Positions 16,411 to 24,450 of a DNA stretch of 50,119 bases are shown here, piece by piece. A model generated the notes under the pieces. The model was not told the origin of the DNA, did no database searches, and saw only the letters and a program-made list of their open reading frames with translations. The stretch is from a bacterium (GTDB taxonomy: Bacteria > Hydrothermota > 32-111), in the NCBI GenBank assembly GCA_050239825.1, contig JBFXGO010000005.1, positions 1 through 50,119 of the forward strand. Direction: 5' to 3'. The translations under genes and the position numbers were made by a program. Within the stretch, counting starts at the first letter, position 1, and every line of letters begins with the position of its first letter.

Positions 16411-16439
16411 TTGACTTTTGTGGGTACATTTTTTATAAT
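16411..16439 (+). promoter_or_regulatory. near-consensus sigma70 promoter of the variable surface-protein locus
   Basis: TTGACT (16411-16416), 17 nt, TATAAT (16434-16439); AAGGAGGT RBS at 16463-16470. Confidence 0.75.
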
Positions 16440-16473
16440 AAAAGAGATTGGTAAAAATACAAAAGGAGGTAAG

Positions 16474-19400
16474 ATGAAAAGAAGGTTGAATCAATTTAAC
16501 AAAGGTGGAGAAAAAGGTAAGGGGTTACTCTCTCTCTCTCTCTCTCTCTACTAAATCAGCGTTTAAGAAAATTAATACTTATCATAGTTGGGATAGCGGT
16601 ATTTTTCTCATTAAAAGCATACACAATAGAAACAAAAGAAGAGCTACTTGCAAAGTATAATGCTGACAAAATAGGTGCACTTCTTCTTGATACGCTAATA
16701 ATTCCGCACGGAAATGATTTTAACACAATATCATGGGCGGCATCATATAATATTTGGGGGCTTTTTAGAATGTACAATTCAACGGGCAAGCTCGAGTACT
16801 TGGATTTAGCCGTTAATAGCTGTAAAAAAATAATGACTTTGAGGGATGATGTCCGAGGTGTAGTTTCAAGAAGAAATGGTGATGGCACCTATATAACAAT
16901 GCCAGTCTGGAGGTGCACATACTATATGACTTATTCAATTGATAATTTTGGGGTAAATTTTACAAATTATATGAAAGCCAATGATTTGTACAAATACTGT
17001 TTAATAGATTCTATAAGGAATGATACAATAGGAGGAGACACTCTGATATATTTCCCTGACTCAAGTGCTTATTTATACGATAAGTCTGGAAGGGGATCAG
17101 ACCCGGATTATCTTGACATCTTAAAAGCAAGAACAAAAATAGTGAATTATTACGGATTGACGATAAAAGATTTTGCTGCTTATCAAGCAGCAGGTATTGG
17201 AAATATTTGTAGCACATTGCTTGAAATGATAATTGTACTAGACAGCACAAATTTATGGGATAGATATGGATTAAGTGGACAAAAGAATAATTTGATTGAA
17301 TTTGTACGTGAGAGTGTGGAAAGTCAGTATTCTGAATGGCGCACATTTAGTGAGAGGGAGGTGACCTATGGTTTATATTTATGGCCAGAAAGGGATGAAA
17401 CATATTATAGATTAATGTGGCACTCACGATTTGATAAATATGACACAATACCTGTTAATCAAAATATGTGGATGGGGAGAGCACTTCTAAAAATGGCACA
17501 AATAACTGGAGAAGAAAAATATAATACTCAGGCAACCTTGTTGGCAAAAGCCATAAAAAGAATACTTTATTTAGATGATGAAACATACCAATGGTCAAAT
17601 ACATATTTATTCTACCCAGATGCTAATAAAGCGGAGGATATTTCACATGCACTTGGAGTTTTAAGTTATGTGTATGAGTATTGCGATTTGCAATCATCAA
17701 TGAATTTAGAAGAAGTTTTTTATAAACGGGATTTAGATCGTTTTACTAACATGATGATGAAAAATGTATATTTAGGCGATATTAGTTATTACAAGTATAA
17801 GTATATAACGGAGGAAGATGACAGTGAAGATTTAAATATAGAAATACCTGATGAAGAGAAAATACTTACAGACAGAATACTTGATTCAGTGTTAGTACTG
17901 CCTGATGGTGAATATGATGTTAATTCATTGGTGGATGGAAAATCAAATATAGTAGATTACAGATTTCTGTATCAAACAAATTGGTGCAGAGCGACGGTAG
18001 CATATTGGGCTAATTATCAAAAATATGATCCAAGAATAATGGAGATGGCATATAATATAACTGGAAATCATGCTGCACCTGAGATTGCATTGTCCTACTT
18101 ATTATCTAATTATGACGATTACAGACCTGCGAAGATAGAGTTGAGCAAGCCGAATATAGCATACAGCACGGATGATTATTTAGAGATTACAGTGGACAGT
18201 ATAAAGATGCTGGGTATATTTAAATATGCAGTATACCAAGAGAACGGAGATACATTCACAACAGGAGGAATAGCGGGAAAGGATGTGGAGGATCATATTA
18301 TCCAAGTGAATGATTTGAGAACAAAGAGCGCAGAGGATATAGTGTTCAAGTATTGGTCGGATAATAATGGGATATTGGGTCCATCGAAAGAGGTGGTGAT
18401 CCCTGTGGTGGGAGATACGCTGTATGTCGGACACAGAGATGAGATACCTGTATTGAAGTATGAGGATATAGAGATAAAAGTCACAGACAGAAAGATATCC
18501 GAACCCTTGCCGGATGGATATCCATATACAGTCATTGAGGGCTGCACGATAGATGTTTATTACTGCGACGGAAGAATGGATAAGGGACTAACAAACAGTT
18601 TTGGCACAGTGATATGGAATGATAAATATATACAAGGCACTCAACCATTAATGATAGTGGCATATAAGGATGGGTATTTCCCTGATACGAGTTACATAGA
18701 GCCATATATGTGGTCAACAACACAGGATGCGATGGGACCGAGCAGTAGCAATCATATAGTAATGTATTATGATACATTAAAAGATACTACAATGGTTAAT
18801 ATGGTTTATAATGATGGAGAACGGATAATAAGCTGCACGAGTGAGGATTTCGGAGAGACATGGATAACAGTTTCAATGGGTAGTGGGTTAAATCCCTCAA
18901 TTACCAGTGTGGCAAATATAGGAAGCGCCTTGATATGGAAATACGGAGCAGGCTGGGCATATTCATATAGGACATCACCATGGACGCCGATTGACACAAA
19001 CTATTTTGATGTAATTAATTCAGTTATGCCGTCAATTATAACTGAGCCGGGATCAGATACAATGATATGGCTTGCGGGGCTTTGTGAGTCTCAACTGTAC
19101 AATGGAAATTATGATATAGTTTATTCACAGTTTAAATATTACCGATGGGATACATTTAGCCAAACGGTTTTGATCAATTCGACAGGTGAATTAAACGAAG
19201 AAAACTATCTTGCTATACCGCAGGCGAATCCGTCAATAGGAGCAAAGGACTGGAGCGGAATATACGCGCCGATGTTTGCATTTGAGGATAAGAATGGCGA
19301 GATTATAAAGAAAGAATTGGATCCGAAGACAAATTTATGGAATTCTATAACCAACCAATCCAACACATCAACTAAGTCCTGCAATCCGTATGTCAATCCG

Positions 19401-20477
19401 AAATCATATACTGACAATTTGAAGATTGTGTGGCAGGAGGAAGTAGCTTTGAACAGTTATAGAATTTATTTGGATGGAGTGAGGTTTGCTTATGATAATA
19501 CGGAGACAGACAAGAGATATCCTAAGATAAAGGATAAAATCCTGACATACATAGAGAATGGGAATAAAATGGTGGTATGTCCGAAGCTGATAAAATCAAC
19601 ATATGCCAATATAGAGATAAACGCTTCAGACAGTATCTTTAATCCTGAGATAGCAATGTATGTGACTTCAAACAGTGCATTGACAAAGATATATGTGAGG
19701 AGCGTATATACTGTAAAGAAGGATGACTACTATAGGATTGAAACGAGCTATGACAGGGTGGTTTCAGAGGATATGGCATCAGCCCTTATAGGCAATGAGA
19801 TAACTCTGAGTATTCCTACTGTTATTACAACAACAAGCTATTTGAAGGACTACCTGCCTTCAGGAGATAAACAGAAGGTGGAGAGGATAAGCGGGACATA
19901 TAACGGACTAAACAGATACAAGGACTACATGGTTGAGATTAAGACAACAAACAACAACAAGAATCAGCCGTATGTCGTAGTAGTAGATGGAGAGCTTGAG
20001 ACAGTGATATACGGTAAAGAAAACACAACACAGATACGGATAGACAGGAATGATTACTCAGAAGACAGGGGTATAGAGATATACCTTGACAGAGTAATAG
20101 GCAGTCCAAACAGAACAGTGGAGATGAAGGTTTATGAGTTTGACAAGATAGAGTCAGAGGTAAGCAATGCCGGAGCAAAGAAGATTAAGCTGTTTAATCC
20201 ATCAGAAGAAGGAAAGGATATTGACTGCGGGATTAAAGTGGATAAAATCAATGGTAAGCAGATAGTATTCAAGATAATGACAGACAGAGATGATGAATTG
20301 ACTGTAAAGCTTATAGACATAACAGGCAGGGAGGTGAATATGCCGATAAAGAAGCAGGTGAAGAGAGGTGAAAACACAATAAGAATAGAAACGGAGAGGA
20401 TGTCAAGCGGCATATACTTTTACACAGTAGAAGTAGGCGGAATGAGACAAACGGGCAAAGTGATGGTGATAAAGTAG
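16474..20477 (+). CDS. large secreted protein with T9SS type-A-like CTD; frameshifted (phase-OFF) at the (CT)11 tract
   Basis: ATG 16474 has a perfect RBS but its frame stops at TAA 16552-16554. The long frame (annotated from 16770) is open back to 16521 and encodes signal peptide RLRKLILIIVGIAVFFSLKA with no ATG. C-terminus VKLIDITGREV...SSGIYFY...KVMVIK is a CTD. Confidence 0.8.
16528..16549 (+). repeat. (CT)11 simple sequence repeat between start codon and signal-peptide core
   Basis: Read directly: ...GGGGTTA CTCTCTCTCTCTCTCTCTCTCT ACTAAAT...; the longest dinucleotide tract noticed in the window. Confidence 0.95.
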
Positions 20478-22323
20478 AATGAATAAGATAATCAGGAGCA
20501 AATGAAAAGATTACTATTGATACTGACGCTGGCAGTAATGCTGTCAGCGTCAATTATTATTGCTGAAGAGTTCCAGATAAGACAGATATTTGATATTGGA
20601 GATGGAGGACCTAGCAGTTTATCTGCCCCAAGAGCATTTTTGATGAATAGTGAAGAAATCTTAAAGCTATGTTCATGGCAACTTCATTATTATAATTATT
20701 TCTACATTTATAATTCAATTGAAAAAGATATGGAATTAATTAAAACAATTGAAAATGGTAATCTGGTGGATTTTGGTGATTATGATTATGATGGCATTAC
20801 AGATATCCTCGGAGTATTGCCTTCGTCGCTAACAACAATATATATATGCGAACAAACTGATAGTGATAGTATACATGTTGAATGGACCTGGAATAGCGGA
20901 GCAGTCATGGAAAATGGTATAGCTGCCTTAACGACAACCAATCTTTTCAAGACAGATGGGAGAGACAGGTTTTACGGGTCTCCAAACCCATATCAAGAGT
21001 ATGGAGAGCCATACGGCTGGTTTTATGCTGAGAGTGACAGCGATAACAGCTACCATGTGGAATATGTGAGTGACAACGGAGGAGACTTCAGAATAGTTTA
21101 CACAATGGATGTAGGATATGTTGATGATGACAGCTTATTGGATGTGGTAGCAGGGACGAATATGGGAGCGACGATATGGGAATCAAAGGATTCGGATAAT
21201 GACACATTTACGAATATAGTTGATCCGGATTCATATAGGGGCGGGGGACTGATAAAAATAATGAATGATATAGACAAAGATAACTTAAATGAATTCATGA
21301 CAGCCGGCAAGGCATACGACCAGTCGCCTGCTGAATGGCTATTTGGTATTTGCGAAACAAAGAGTAATGACTTATATGATACAATATGGAGCCATTGGAT
21401 TCGGAAGGACTACGGGCCGGTTGGAGCATCTTTTGACGGCTGCGGAGGCGACTATGGAGACATAGACGGAGACGGACAAGATGAACTTGTGCTTTGCGCA
21501 GGAAGCATAATAGAAGTGTTTGAGGTGGCAGAAGATGACAGCTTCGAGATGATATGGAGCATGGATAATGACACATTCTCAGGGAGCCTTGTATTGGTAT
21601 ATGACTTCACAGGCAATGGCAGAGCAGAGATAATCTGGACAGGCCAGTCGGACCCCCAACTGCCATTGACTTATGATATGGAGGTAATGAAGACATACAT
21701 AATAGAATGGGATACTTTGTATGATGAAAACAAACCCACACTTGATTCTGCAGTGGCGTATGAGGGGACAGTGGTGGGAGACGGGATAGATGAGGATGAT
21801 ATAGTGGGCCTGTATTTTAACAGAAGCATGGATACCTGCACAGTGAACAGAGGTAACATAGATGAAGTATTGAAACTGAGCAATAGCCATACATGGCTTG
21901 ACGGGACAGACAGCTTGGGAGCGGTGTGGTGGAACAGTATAAGGACAATAATGTTCATCAAGTTTAAGACAAATACAGAAAACCCTACAATAGCGGTAGG
22001 AGATACAATAAGCCCTGATAGTCTAACCATAAACGGAAGCGAACCATACAGATACCCTTGCTATAATGAGGTGATACTCAGAGGCGACTTTGGGCCGACA
22101 GGGATACAAGAAAACCGTGAGATAAAAGATGTTGCAGAGTTACAGAGTATCAGAGTAACAGGTTGTAAGACAATAGAGTGGAATACAAATACAGAAGCGA
22201 CATTAACAGTTTATGACATATCAGGAAGAGAATTAATTAAAGAGGAATCAGAGACAACAGGAGAACACAAAACAGACATCAAACACTTGAAGAACGGGAT
22301 ATACTTTATAAAACTGAAAACTA
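20313..22323 (+). repeat. tandem direct repeat unit, copy 1 (~2.08 kb period)
   Basis: Aligns with 22396-24409 at offset 2083 (5' part) and 2086 (3' part). Confidence 0.9.
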
Positions 22324-22364
22324 ACAATGAATCAATCACGCAGAAGCAGATAATAATAAGGTAA
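20502..22364 (+). CDS. secreted FG-GAP/VCBS-like (DxDxDG) beta-propeller protein with CTD, paralog A
   Basis: Signal peptide MKRLLLILTLAVMLSASIIIA; repeats DYDYDGITDIL, DIDKDNLNEF, DIDGDGQDELV, DFTGNGRAEII; CTD LTVYDISGRE...LKNGIYFIKL. Confidence 0.75.
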   Translation: MKRLLLILTLAVMLSASIIIAEEFQIRQIFDIGDGGPSSLSAPRAFLMNSEEILKLCSWQLHYYNYFYIYNSIEKDMELIKTIENGNLVDFGDYDYDGITDILGVLPSSLTTIYICEQTDSDSIHVEWTWNSGAVMENGIAALTTTNLFKTDGRDRFYGSPNPYQEYGEPYGWFYAESDSDNSYHVEYVSDNGGDFRIVYTMDVGYVDDDSLLDVVAGTNMGATIWESKDSDNDTFTNIVDPDSYRGGGLIKIMNDIDKDNLNEFMTAGKAYDQSPAEWLFGICETKSNDLYDTIWSHWIRKDYGPVGASFDGCGGDYGDIDGDGQDELVLCAGSIIEVFEVAEDDSFEMIWSMDNDTFSGSLVLVYDFTGNGRAEIIWTGQSDPQLPLTYDMEVMKTYIIEWDTLYDENKPTLDSAVAYEGTVVGDGIDEDDIVGLYFNRSMDTCTVNRGNIDEVLKLSNSHTWLDGTDSLGAVWWNSIRTIMFIKFKTNTENPTIAVGDTISPDSLTINGSEPYRYPCYNEVILRGDFGPTGIQENREIKDVAELQSIRVTGCKTIEWNTNTEATLTVYDISGRELIKEESETTGEHKTDIKHLKNGIYFIKLKTNNESITQKQIIIR

Positions 22365-22368
22365 ATAT

Positions 22369-22560
22369 ATGAAAGGAGAAGGAGACATAGAAGTGATAGA
22401 CATAACAGGCAGAGAGGTGAATATGCCGATAAAGAAGCAGGTGAAGAGCGGAACAAACAGCATAGTAATAGAAACGGAGAGGATGTCAAGCGGCATATAC
22501 TTTTACACAGTAGAAGTAGGCGGAATGAGACAAACGGGCAAGGTGATGGTGATAAAGTAG
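22369..22560 (+). pseudogene. orphan CTD fragment duplicating the 3' end of the large 16474-20477 gene
   Basis: IDITGREVNMPIKKQVK...ERMSSGIYFYTVEVGGMRQTGKVMVIK is nearly identical to the last ~54 aa of the large protein; no signal peptide. Confidence 0.75.
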
Positions 22561-24409
22561 AATGAATAAGATAATCAGGGGCAAATGAAAAGATTACTAT
22601 TGATACTGACGCTGGCAGTAATGCTGTCAGCGTCAATTATAAATGGAGATGAGTTTCAGATAAAACAAATATTGAATGTTGGGACTGGGCATCCTGTTTC
22701 ATATGATGTCCTAACCAAATTAAATTATTATAATAACAGAAGTTTGTTAATAATAAATTATTATGTTAATAGAATCCAATCAGATTTTTATGAATATAAT
22801 GGCTTTTCAAATTCATTTGAAAAGTGTAACACTCTAGACTCCGGCTGGGTATATGACGATGGTGATTTTGATTTAGATGGAAAAATAGATTATCTGGGTT
22901 CAACTTTGTATGATACAAGTAGCGTAGCAGTACAAGAACAATCAGATACAAATATGATTAATAATATATGGACTTGGACAAGTGGCCATGTGTTTGAAAA
23001 TGGATTATACGCATTATCCTCCACCAATTTATTCAAGACGGACGGGAGAGACAGGTTTTACGGTTCACCTAATCCGTATCAAGAGTATGGAGAGCCATAC
23101 GGCTGGTTTTATGCAGAGAGTGACAGCGATAACAGCTACCATGTGGAATATGTGAGTGACAACGGAGGAGACTTCAGAATAGTTTACACAATGGATGTAG
23201 GATATGTTGATGATGACAGCTTATTGGATGTGGTAGCAGGGACGAATATGGGAGCGACGATATGGGAATCAAAGGATTCGGATAATGACACATTTACGAA
23301 TATAGTTGATCCGGATTCATATAGGGGCGGGGGACTGATAAAAATAATGAATGATATAGACAAAGATAACTTAAATGAATTCATGACAGCCGGCAAGGCA
23401 TACGACCAGTCGCCTGCTGAATGGCTATTTGGTATTTGCGAAACAAAGAGTAATGACTTATATGATACAATATGGAGCCATTGGATTCGGAAGGACTACG
23501 GGCCGGTTGGAGCATCTTTTGACGGCTGCGGAGGCGACTATGGAGACATAGACGGAGACGGACAAGATGAACTTGTGCTTTGCGCAGGAAGCATAATAGA
23601 AGTGTTTGAGGTGGCAGAAGATGACAGCTTCGAGATGATATGGAGCATGGATAATGACACATTCTCAGGGAGCCTTGTATTGGTATATGACTTCACAGGC
23701 AATGGCAGAGCAGAGATAATCTGGACAGGCCAGTCGGACCCCCAACTGCCATTGACTTATGATATGGAGGTAATGAAGACATACATAATAGAATGGGATA
23801 CTTTGTATGATGAAAACAAACCCACACTTGATTCTGCAGTGGCGTATGAGGGGACAGTGGTGGGAGACGGGATAGATGAGGATGATATAGTGGGCCTGTA
23901 TTTTAACAGAAGCATGGATACCTGCACAGTGAACAGAGGTAACATAGATGAAGTATTGAAACTGAGCAATAGCCATACATGGCTTGACGGGACAGACAGC
24001 TTGGGAGCGGTGTGGTGGAACACAGCGAGGGACAGGATGTTTATAAAGTTTAAGACGAATACAGAAAACCCTACGATAGCAGTTGGAGATACAATAAGCC
24101 CTGACAGTATAACCATAAACGGGAGCGAGCCATACAGATACCCTTGCTATAATGAGGTGATACTCAGAGGCGACTTTGGGCCGGAAGGGACGGGAGAAAG
24201 CCGTGAGATAAAAGATGTTGCAGAGTTACAGAGTATCAGAGTAACAGGTTGTAAGACAATAGAGTGGAATGCAAATACAGAAGCAACATTAACAGTATAC
24301 GATATATCAGGAAGAGAATTAATTAAAGAGGAATCAAAGACAACAGGCGAACACAAAACAGACATCAGACACTTAAAGAACGGGATATACTTTATAAAAC
24401 TGAAAACTA
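22396..24409 (+). repeat. tandem direct repeat unit, copy 2
   Basis: Matches copy 1; core 23077-24022 is essentially identical to 20991-21936. Confidence 0.9.
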
Positions 24410-24450
24410 TGGCAAAGTCATACACCGTTAAGTATCTAAAACTAATTTAA
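22585..24450 (+). CDS. secreted FG-GAP/VCBS-like beta-propeller protein with CTD, paralog B
   Basis: Same first 19 aa and core as paralog A; divergent residues ~20-145 and last ~13 aa. Confidence 0.75.
   Translation: MKRLLLILTLAVMLSASIINGDEFQIKQILNVGTGHPVSYDVLTKLNYYNNRSLLIINYYVNRIQSDFYEYNGFSNSFEKCNTLDSGWVYDDGDFDLDGKIDYLGSTLYDTSSVAVQEQSDTNMINNIWTWTSGHVFENGLYALSSTNLFKTDGRDRFYGSPNPYQEYGEPYGWFYAESDSDNSYHVEYVSDNGGDFRIVYTMDVGYVDDDSLLDVVAGTNMGATIWESKDSDNDTFTNIVDPDSYRGGGLIKIMNDIDKDNLNEFMTAGKAYDQSPAEWLFGICETKSNDLYDTIWSHWIRKDYGPVGASFDGCGGDYGDIDGDGQDELVLCAGSIIEVFEVAEDDSFEMIWSMDNDTFSGSLVLVYDFTGNGRAEIIWTGQSDPQLPLTYDMEVMKTYIIEWDTLYDENKPTLDSAVAYEGTVVGDGIDEDDIVGLYFNRSMDTCTVNRGNIDEVLKLSNSHTWLDGTDSLGAVWWNTARDRMFIKFKTNTENPTIAVGDTISPDSITINGSEPYRYPCYNEVILRGDFGPEGTGESREIKDVAELQSIRVTGCKTIEWNANTEATLTVYDISGRELIKEESKTTGEHKTDIRHLKNGIYFIKLKTMAKSYTVKYLKLI

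Follow-up and report, generated by a model that had tools for sequence, protein, structure and literature searches.

A (CT)11 repeat ahead of a predicted type IX secretion cargo gene as a probable phase-variation locus in an uncultured WOR-3 bacterium

The (CT)11 locus and its encoded protein

We analyzed a stretch of 50,119 nucleotides, contig JBFXGO010000005.1 of assembly GCA_050239825.1 (hereafter the window), from a bacterium assigned to Hydrothermota, 32-111, in the GTDB classification. The subject of the analysis is a perfect (CT)11 repeat located between a short leader coding sequence and the signal-peptide coding segment of a large open reading frame (ORF), which represents the body of a cargo protein of the type IX secretion system (T9SS), here called P0001. 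The features of the locus are listed in Table 1.

Table 1. Features identified at the (CT)11 locus, with positions counted from the first nucleotide of the window.
Feature	Position	Strand	Basis
Three copies of TTGACAAAA in inverted orientation, including the near-perfect palindrome TTTTGTCA-AA-TGACAAAA	16349..16403		repeat search
Sigma-70-type promoter-like site, TTGACT-17 nt-TATAAT	16411..16439	+	consensus match only, 11 of 12 positions
Shine-Dalgarno (SD) sequence AAGGAGGT, 3 nt 5' of the ATG	16463..16470	+	direct reading
Leader ORF in the assembled (OFF) phase, 26 codons plus TAA (16552-16554)	16474..16554	+	translation; homologous leader in frame in database homologue P0021
(CT)11 simple sequence repeat, proposed slipped-strand switch	16528..16549	+	perfect 22-nt tract
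Signal-peptide coding segment: basic n-region RLRK, hydrophobic core LILIIVGIAVFF, cleavage-like site between SLKA and Y	16551..16619	+	inspection of the long-frame translation
Long open frame, 1,318 codons plus stop, body of T9SS cargo protein P0001	16521..20477	+	translation
N-terminal domain, (alpha/alpha)6-toroid fold like that of carbohydrate-active enzymes	16620..17990	+	AlphaFold model
All-beta region (propeller plus sandwich-like) with one Asp-box-like motif	18420..20240	+	model plus Foldseek
T9SS type A C-terminal sorting domain (CTD)	20271..20468	+	PF18962, TIGR04183, PDB 8glj_D

An architecture similar to that of the promoter-like site was aligned upstream of the paralogues, and AGGAGG, the equivalent of AAGGAGGT, precedes the leader start at related loci. 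Translation from the ATG at position 16474 passes through the whole repeat and terminates directly after it, which yields a peptide of 26 residues. The long frame encodes, right after the tract, what was recognized by eye as a signal peptide, with a 12-residue hydrophobic core and the cleavage region SLKA-YTIE. According to the ORF listing, the earliest ATG, GTG or TTG codon of the long frame is located at 16770, beyond the signal peptide, and direct reading of this locus identified no SD-like sequence 5' of the signal peptide. When the repeat number alone was varied with a script, repeats of 7, 10, 13, and 16 units each generated one ORF of 1,331 to 1,337 codons from the ATG at 16474, and all remaining lengths between 5 and 17 units gave ORFs of 22 to 64 codons from the same start. 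In the ON phase, the signal peptide would be lengthened at its N-terminus by the residues of the first 18 leader codons and of a Leu-Ser repeat. In the public annotation, the gene is represented by P0003, a call of 994 amino acids, compared with about 1,333 expected, and this shortened call was the sole return of a word-indexed protein search.

A first-pass annotation, made from the letters of the window, had already described a consensus promoter, a ribosome-binding site and the ATG at 16474 with its stop at 16552, as well as a long frame that is open from 16521, encodes a signal peptide and contains no ATG before 16770. It had further proposed that 10 or 13 CT units would fuse this ATG to a gene for a CTD-secreted protein of about 1,330 amino acids that is truncated by the ORF caller. 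All of these elements were reproduced, with the additions that GTG and TTG codons are likewise missing before 16770 and that 7 and 16 units also restore the frame.

The C-terminus of P0001 scored above the cut-off for both Por_Secre_tail (PF18962, 29 bits; cut-off 27) and TIGR04183 (24.5 bits; cut-off 23), and the CTD was also matched in a PDB sequence search to 8glj_D with an E value of 0.029. Beyond the sorting domain, P0001 was unrecognized by Pfam, NCBIfam, and the PDB sequence search. An AlphaFold model of residues 34 to 490 displayed an (alpha/alpha)6 toroid with a predicted local distance difference test score (pLDDT) of 73 and a predicted template modeling score (pTM) of 0.78. The best match to this model in VIA-align was the glycoside hydrolase (GH) family 76 mannanase 4v1r_A, with a Z score of 18.8, a root-mean-square deviation of 3.8 and 265 aligned residues, where helical models typically reach a Z score of about 14; the next matches were other carbohydrate-active toroids. 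No Foldseek match to the toroid model was obtained at an E value of 0.001 or lower (best E value 3.4e-3), and the GH127 and C5-epimerase Pfam matches of P0001 homologs were all below the cut-off.

The model of the region encoded at 18420 to 20240 was all-beta (pLDDT 83.5, pTM 0.79) and matched GH32 levanase, GH43, and sialidases in Foldseek with E values of 8e-9 to 1e-6 and low template modeling scores of 0.2 to 0.37. The Asp-box-like motif, SEDFGETW, is located at residue 774 of P0001. A HMMER search of 1.84 billion representatives identified 75 relatives of P0001 at an E value of 0.001 or lower, and in distant relatives the toroid was joined either to FG-GAP repeats and a CTD or to CBM4_9. 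P0001 is probably a large, lineage-restricted surface protein, for which a glycan-binding or glycan-cleaving function is proposed with low confidence.

Two further observations were made at the locus. The inverted copies of TTGACAAAA are located about 17 nt 5' of the -35 box and, as judged by alignment, have been retained at a paralogue on contig C31 and at three loci of a genome from the same genus. These repeats are a candidate operator, which would possibly add transcriptional control above the frame switch. A link to the hairpin-repeat families of the genome was rejected, as no repeat of these families is located here. Downstream of the gene, a lone 63-codon ORF at 22369-22560 consists of a T9SS sorting domain only, is 85% identical to the C-terminus of P0001, and is flanked by two paralogues with FG-GAP repeats and a CTD at 20502-22364 and 22585-24450. 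This ORF looks like the remnant of a deleted copy.

Leader repeats in the host genome and in related genomes

The host genome, here called G000, is 2.115 Mb in size, distributed over 67 contigs, 99% complete, and has a G+C content of 39.8%. It contains 141 dinucleotide runs of at least 5 units, namely 116 runs of 5 units, 19 of 6, 2 of 7, 2 of 8, one (CT)11, and one (CT)13. The (CT)11 tract in the window is thus the second-longest dinucleotide run in the genome, and the longest run outside the gene set described here is a (CT)8. Since (CT)11 and (CT)13 are outliers against run lengths that otherwise fall steeply, the tract is not a chance feature. The homopolymers of G or C amount to 130, 23, 4, and 2 for lengths of 6, 7, 8, and 9 nucleotides, followed by a single tract of 11 C.

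The three longest simple repeats in the genome are accordingly (CT)13 at C11:3421-3446, the (CT)11 tract in the window, and the poly-C tract of 11 nucleotides at C30:14382-14392. All three were found 10 to 18 codons into the open frames of paralogous T9SS cargo genes of 1,150 to 1,318 codons, the paralogues on contigs C11 and C30 having 1,150 and 1,234 open codons. Furthermore, each of these tracts is preceded by a promoter-like site, an AGGAGG sequence, and an ATG whose frame differs from that of the long ORF. The remaining (CT)6 to (CT)8 runs in the genome are located in other contexts, including ordinary genes for the (CT)7 and (CT)8 runs at C27:23381-23396, C13:33567-33580, and C24:22548-22561, with the exception of a decayed fourth copy on contig C50. 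In this copy (G000:C50:139742-140867), the leader and a (CT)8 tract (C50:139783-139798) are in frame and the gene is cut after 116 codons, followed by about 600 nt without a long frame and then by a CTD remnant of 62 codons.

A fifth paralogue, on contig C31, shares the promoter region and lacks the repeat, and its ATG reads straight into the signal peptide. It was also noted that the SD sequence, the ATG, and the first 7 codons of a leader of the type found on contig C11 are present about 170 nt 5' of the start of this paralogue (G000:C31:42050-42270), which suggests that front ends have been swapped by recombination.

For the T9SS machinery, SprA was identified above the cut-off (407.6 bits summed), PorV-like and PorU-like proteins were matched below the cut-off with E values of 7e-37 and 4.7e-77, respectively, and the genome contained 67 matches to T9SS sorting domains. 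The GldM model matched neither this genome nor any of the control genomes. Intact MutS and MutL proteins are encoded, and an instability of the tracts would therefore not stem from a loss of mismatch repair.

The N-terminal domain of P0001 was identified in 9 of 13 other genomes of the family and in none of 27 further genomes of the phylum outside it. The genomes of the relatives are mostly labeled candidate division WOR-3 or TA06, and a few have clearly different bin labels. Two loci in a genome of the same genus contained (CT)7 and (CT)15 at the leader position, with nearly identical flanks, while five genomes of another genus contained C8, C9, C10, C10, and C8 at this position. Anchored pattern scans and a family-wide scan for (CT)8 added CT loci with 10, 12, 14, 15, 15, 16, and 18 units and poly-C loci with 7, 8, 8, 10, 10, 11, 13, and 14 nucleotides, all of them located 3' of an SD sequence, start codon and leader and 5' of a signal peptide.

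Several of the leader-repeat loci precede different proteins, some of which have LVIVD-like N-termini instead of the toroid. The promoter, leader, and repeat are thus a module common to different T9SS cargo genes. The bases directly 3' of the CT run, AC-W-AAATCAGCG-W-TT, are conserved at the nucleotide level, although they encode ..NQR(L/F)R.. in part of the genes and ..KSA(I/F)K.. in others. The leaders at the poly-C loci follow the consensus M-x-NFKKRLT-(C)n-RYL....

Pattern scans of the genome and metagenome collections identified no second copy of the exact window locus. The CT-pattern scan of metagenome contigs gave no matches, and the scan with a left flank of the window type returned just the two same-genus loci already found, plus the unrelated contexts L088 and L091. 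Nine matches to the poly-C pattern were dropped as chance matches (L033, L037, L040, L045, L047, L049, L050, L052, and L053). Two other findings are side observations. At L012, positions 930-943 (G005:C52), a homologue in another genus has no coding repeat; a run of A14 instead fills the promoter spacer, TTGAC(A)14CGAT-TACAAT, with 17 nt between the hexamers, and in this member of the protein family the run is a candidate for a switch that acts through promoter spacing. At L026, positions 1185-1210, in a metagenome-assembled genome (MAG) labeled Bacteroidales, a (CT)13 tract is followed by the same 15 bases as in the WOR-3 cassettes, with no leader or long ORF; the match could be due to chance, to mis-binning of a fragment, or to what is left of a cassette.

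The lengths of the tracts were found to differ between otherwise near-identical sequences. An alignment of the poly-C orthologue from the five genomes of one genus contained 196 variable columns among 2,219, of which 194 were located in the first 800 columns and the other two were the gap columns of the tract. Not a single substitution was observed in the 1,419 columns that extend from 300 nt 5' to 1,100 nt 3' of the tract, which itself occurs as C8, C9, and C10. Likewise, two CT loci on near-identical flanks contained 14 versus 15 units and 16 versus 18 units. We also noted that L013 to L017, which are identical over 1.4 kb at the tract, yet differ by 113 to 156 substitutions in the 800 nt upstream, suggest a recent transfer or sweep of the front of the gene between species.

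Frame states, selection and competing explanations

To describe the frame states, we made a tally of the loci in which both the leader and the long frame were readable, 26 in total. Only one of these was ON, the C9 allele, which is in frame for at least 416 codons; the binomial probability is 3.7e-4 against an expectation of one-third, a significance that is overstated because the loci are related. Left out of the tally were L029 and L032, in which the cassette precedes either a gene that has a start of its own or a short ORF, the C50 remnant in the host genome, L060, which is at the end of a contig, L086, with N's next to the tract, L048, truncated by the start of its contig, L026, in a non-coding context, and L044 and L051 (metagenome copies identical to counted loci). 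Also left out was L059, in which a (CT)8 tract is located in frame in an ordinary signal peptide and with which the count would be 2 ON loci in 27.

The two out-of-frame classes hold 6 loci each among the 12 CT loci. The 14 poly-C loci (G000:C30, L013 to L018, L031, L034, L041 to L043, L046, and L054) comprise 10 that are one C short of an in-frame length, 3 that are one C long, and the one in the ON state. The leader peptide has 17 to 20 residues in the short class and 34 to 39 residues in the long class, and the bias toward the short class could reflect selection for an OFF state of lower cost, a bias in mutation, or rescue by slippage.

An in-frame state was also observed in the database homologue P0021, which is 53% identical to the N-terminus of P0001 and in which one frame runs from a homologous leader through a short run of Leu-Ser into the signal peptide. 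This fusion argues that the ATG of the leader is the real start of the family. The gene calls for the paralogues P0007 and P0020 start at an internal Met of the signal peptide.

To assess selection, the ratio of nonsynonymous to synonymous substitution rates (dN/dS) was estimated with the NG86 method for orthologue pairs in which both members are out of frame. The ratio was 0.077 for the C30 copy of the host genome and its same-genus counterpart (842 codons), 0.14 for L018 of G002 and L054 (169 codons), and 0.135 for the C11-contig copy and its same-genus counterpart (403 codons), where dS was near saturation. By these sequence comparisons, the out-of-frame orthologues are under purifying selection. 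The value was 0.66 over 380 codons for two recent paralogues in the same-genus genome, L025 with (CT)15 and L027 with (CT)7, which have near-identical front ends. This is well above the orthologue values and points to relaxed or diversifying selection.

We consider it likely, with a probability of roughly 0.8, that the (CT)11 tract acts as a contingency locus that switches a T9SS cargo gene ON and OFF by slipped-strand mispairing and that it is currently in the OFF phase. The first-pass annotation had put forward the same interpretation, which is now supported by the tracts at paralogues and orthologues, their differences in length, purifying selection, and the in-frame homologue. It had also proposed a comparison of orthologues and paralogues for a repeat at the same position, where length-variable (CT)n or poly-C tracts were indeed found; the lengths are thus not invariant, and rather than starting downstream of this N-terminus, P0021 carries it in frame.

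Several observations weigh against a contingency locus. The variation in length is known from related loci and not from the window locus itself. The locus was matched by two contigs from a landfill metagenome that is a possible source of the genome, one of 16,667 nt, which aligned up to 16519, and one of 3,823 nt, which started at 16559, in a comparison with the repeat masked; the assembly is thus interrupted at the tract, with no bridging contig among those listed, and this comparison argues neither for nor against length variation at the locus. Of three further sequencing runs, one matched over just 37 nt and two gave no match. The dN/dS values belong to paralogous lineages and not to the window gene. 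Finally, the share of ON loci is lower than the one-third expected for random tract lengths, and "OFF" alleles could be expressed via some other route.

The last point is the core of an explanation by recoding, according to which the out-of-frame arrangement is the normal state and transcriptional realignment or ribosomal frameshifting on the tract provides a constitutive low level of protein. The near absence of ON loci, the purifying selection on out-of-frame genes, and the finding that 10 of the 14 poly-C loci are exactly one C short would all agree with such an arrangement. However, the even split of the CT loci is unlike a directional programmed shift, the occurrence of one orthologue as C8, C9, and C10 fits switching at the DNA level, and in-frame alleles exist, as seen for C9 and P0021. 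Moreover, a strong excess of OFF copies is usual for multi-locus phase-variable families such as Neisseria opa, where a typical cell keeps the majority of the copies silent. We regard recoding as unlikely, although it stays alive as a rival to the contingency locus.

It is distinctly improbable that the frame is broken only in the assembled sequence, through an assembly or sequencing artefact, and that the gene is in reality intact, with an in-frame length such as (CT)10 as the majority allele. Dinucleotide runs are error-prone, and the two contigs from the probable source run end and start at the tract. Yet out-of-frame leader tracts, with shifts in both directions, were seen at 25 other loci in many independently made assemblies, and assembly word sizes usually exceed the 22 nt of the tract. 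Should the length here in fact be (CT)10, the repeat would remain one of the contingency type.

Very little speaks for a decaying pseudogene, in which the repeat would merely be the site of an inactivating frameshift in a family that is being lost. Decay seems to have affected other copies, as illustrated by the copy on contig C50, with its leader, (CT)8 tract, 116 codons, and CTD remnant, and by the lone CTD fragment at 22369-22560. Against such an explanation for the window gene, the frame is open for 1,318 codons past the tract in DNA of 40% G+C, and for 1,150 and 1,234 codons in the paralogues, and long perfect tracts have been maintained in many lineages. The dN/dS values of 0.08 to 0.14 among out-of-frame orthologues indicate that these genes are not pseudogenes.

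Least probable of all is that the leader functions on its own as a small upstream ORF and that the protein starts at a non-canonical codon 3' of a repeat without a gating function, as might be suggested by L029 and L032, where the cassette precedes a gene with its own SD sequence and ATG, and by the ATG or GTG just 3' of the tract in the C11-contig copy of the host genome, L028, and L055/L056, since the window has no ATG, GTG, or TTG from the tract to 16770 and no SD-like sequence 5' of the signal peptide, and since both P0021 and the C9 allele read through the leader into the signal peptide.

Proposed mechanism and comparison with known systems

Under the contingency-locus interpretation, the (CT)11 tract would be hypermutable and is placed between a short basic leader, consisting of the SD sequence, the ATG, and 18 codons, and the signal peptide. 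Slipped-strand mispairing during replication would lead to the gain or loss of CT units, and the ATG of the leader shares its frame with the signal peptide and the rest of the gene only at 7, 10, 13, or 16 units. With 11 units, translation from this ATG ends after 26 codons, and since the long frame lacks a start codon 5' of the signal peptide, the gene would be OFF. The protein of 1.33 thousand amino acids produced in the ON phase would be exported by the T9SS and either displayed on the surface or secreted. We infer the switching, expression, and export of this protein from sequence.

In this family of WOR-3 bacteria, a set of T9SS cargo genes shares the modular front end of promoter, leader, and repeat, with either (CT)n or poly-C, and each 2-Mb genome contains several such loci, nearly all of them OFF in the consensus sequence. 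Sparse stochastic expression of alternative surface proteins may then serve as bet-hedging, and we can only guess that the selective agent for a free-living anaerobe is phage, a predator, or fluctuation in substrates. A broader and more tentative proposal, to which we give somewhat less than even odds, is that a free-living, uncultured candidate phylum possesses a whole "phasome". A portable cassette of promoter, leader, and repeat would here precede several unrelated T9SS cargo genes, at 4 to 5 loci per 2-Mb genome that are nearly all OFF in the population consensus. Each cell would show a stochastic combination of only a few large, glycan-enzyme-like surface proteins, with phage, predators, or substrate rather than host immunity as the driver.

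If the contingency-locus interpretation is correct, this would mean that environmental bacteria with small genomes hedge the display of big, secreted, enzyme-like proteins. It would also mean that gene callers systematically shorten or miss such genes in MAGs, as for P0003 in the window and for P0007 and P0020, and that counts of tract lengths in metagenomic reads could offer a culture-free view of bet-hedging in situ. The locus is of interest for the uncultured lineage, for the presence of several loci in a small genome, and for a consensus that is nearly always OFF. In the literature, we found no published work on WOR-3 with phase variation or on WOR-3 with type IX secretion; slipped-strand mispairing and type IX secretion were joined only in a general review, and wider searches returned work on pathogens. 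The passage found in a 2025 review (PMC11868660) contains nothing on environmental lineages. The mechanism is already known, and what is new is the lineage and a cargo with a carbohydrate-enzyme-like fold.

Repeat-driven phase variation is textbook biology of host-adapted pathogens and, to our knowledge, has rarely been documented in free-living, uncultured lineages. The opa genes of Neisseria contain pentamer repeats in the region coding for the leader peptide and are present in multiple copies that switch independently, with most copies OFF. The genes described here are similar in that they encode surface proteins from multiple loci, each with its own repeat in the leader-coding region and most of them OFF. 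They differ in the repeat unit, the protein family, and the secretion route, and switching has been demonstrated for opa, whereas here it is proposed from the tracts.

For sabA and oipA of Helicobacter pylori, a CT repeat in the 5' coding region has been described that turns the genes ON and OFF by frame through slipped-strand mispairing (PMC5371856). The window locus has in common with these genes the CT unit, its location near the 5' end of the coding sequence, either before or within the signal sequence, and a frame-based ON/OFF logic. The first-pass annotation had drawn this parallel, which holds as an analogy for the mechanism and not for the protein. P0001 showed no homology to Hop, OipA, or SabA, with Por_Secre_tail as its only Pfam match, and the folds differ, the Hop family being beta-barrels, whereas P0001 is a T9SS cargo of 1.3 thousand amino acids with toroid and beta-propeller-like domains. 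The hosts also differ, one being a host-restricted pathogen and the other an uncultured WOR-3 bacterium connected to a landfill metagenome run, in which MutS and MutL are present and the gene family also uses poly-C tracts.

Poly-G/C contingency loci near the 5' end of surface-related genes are described for Campylobacter, Neisseria, and Haemophilus (PMC6321876, PMC5084427). Their tracts of 8 to 14 nucleotides and single-unit variation between near-identical genomes resemble the poly-C paralogues identified here. Those organisms are host-associated. The tracts examined here belong to a single modular leader that precedes T9SS cargo genes, and (CT)n and poly-C versions of this arrangement coexist among the paralogues of one genome.

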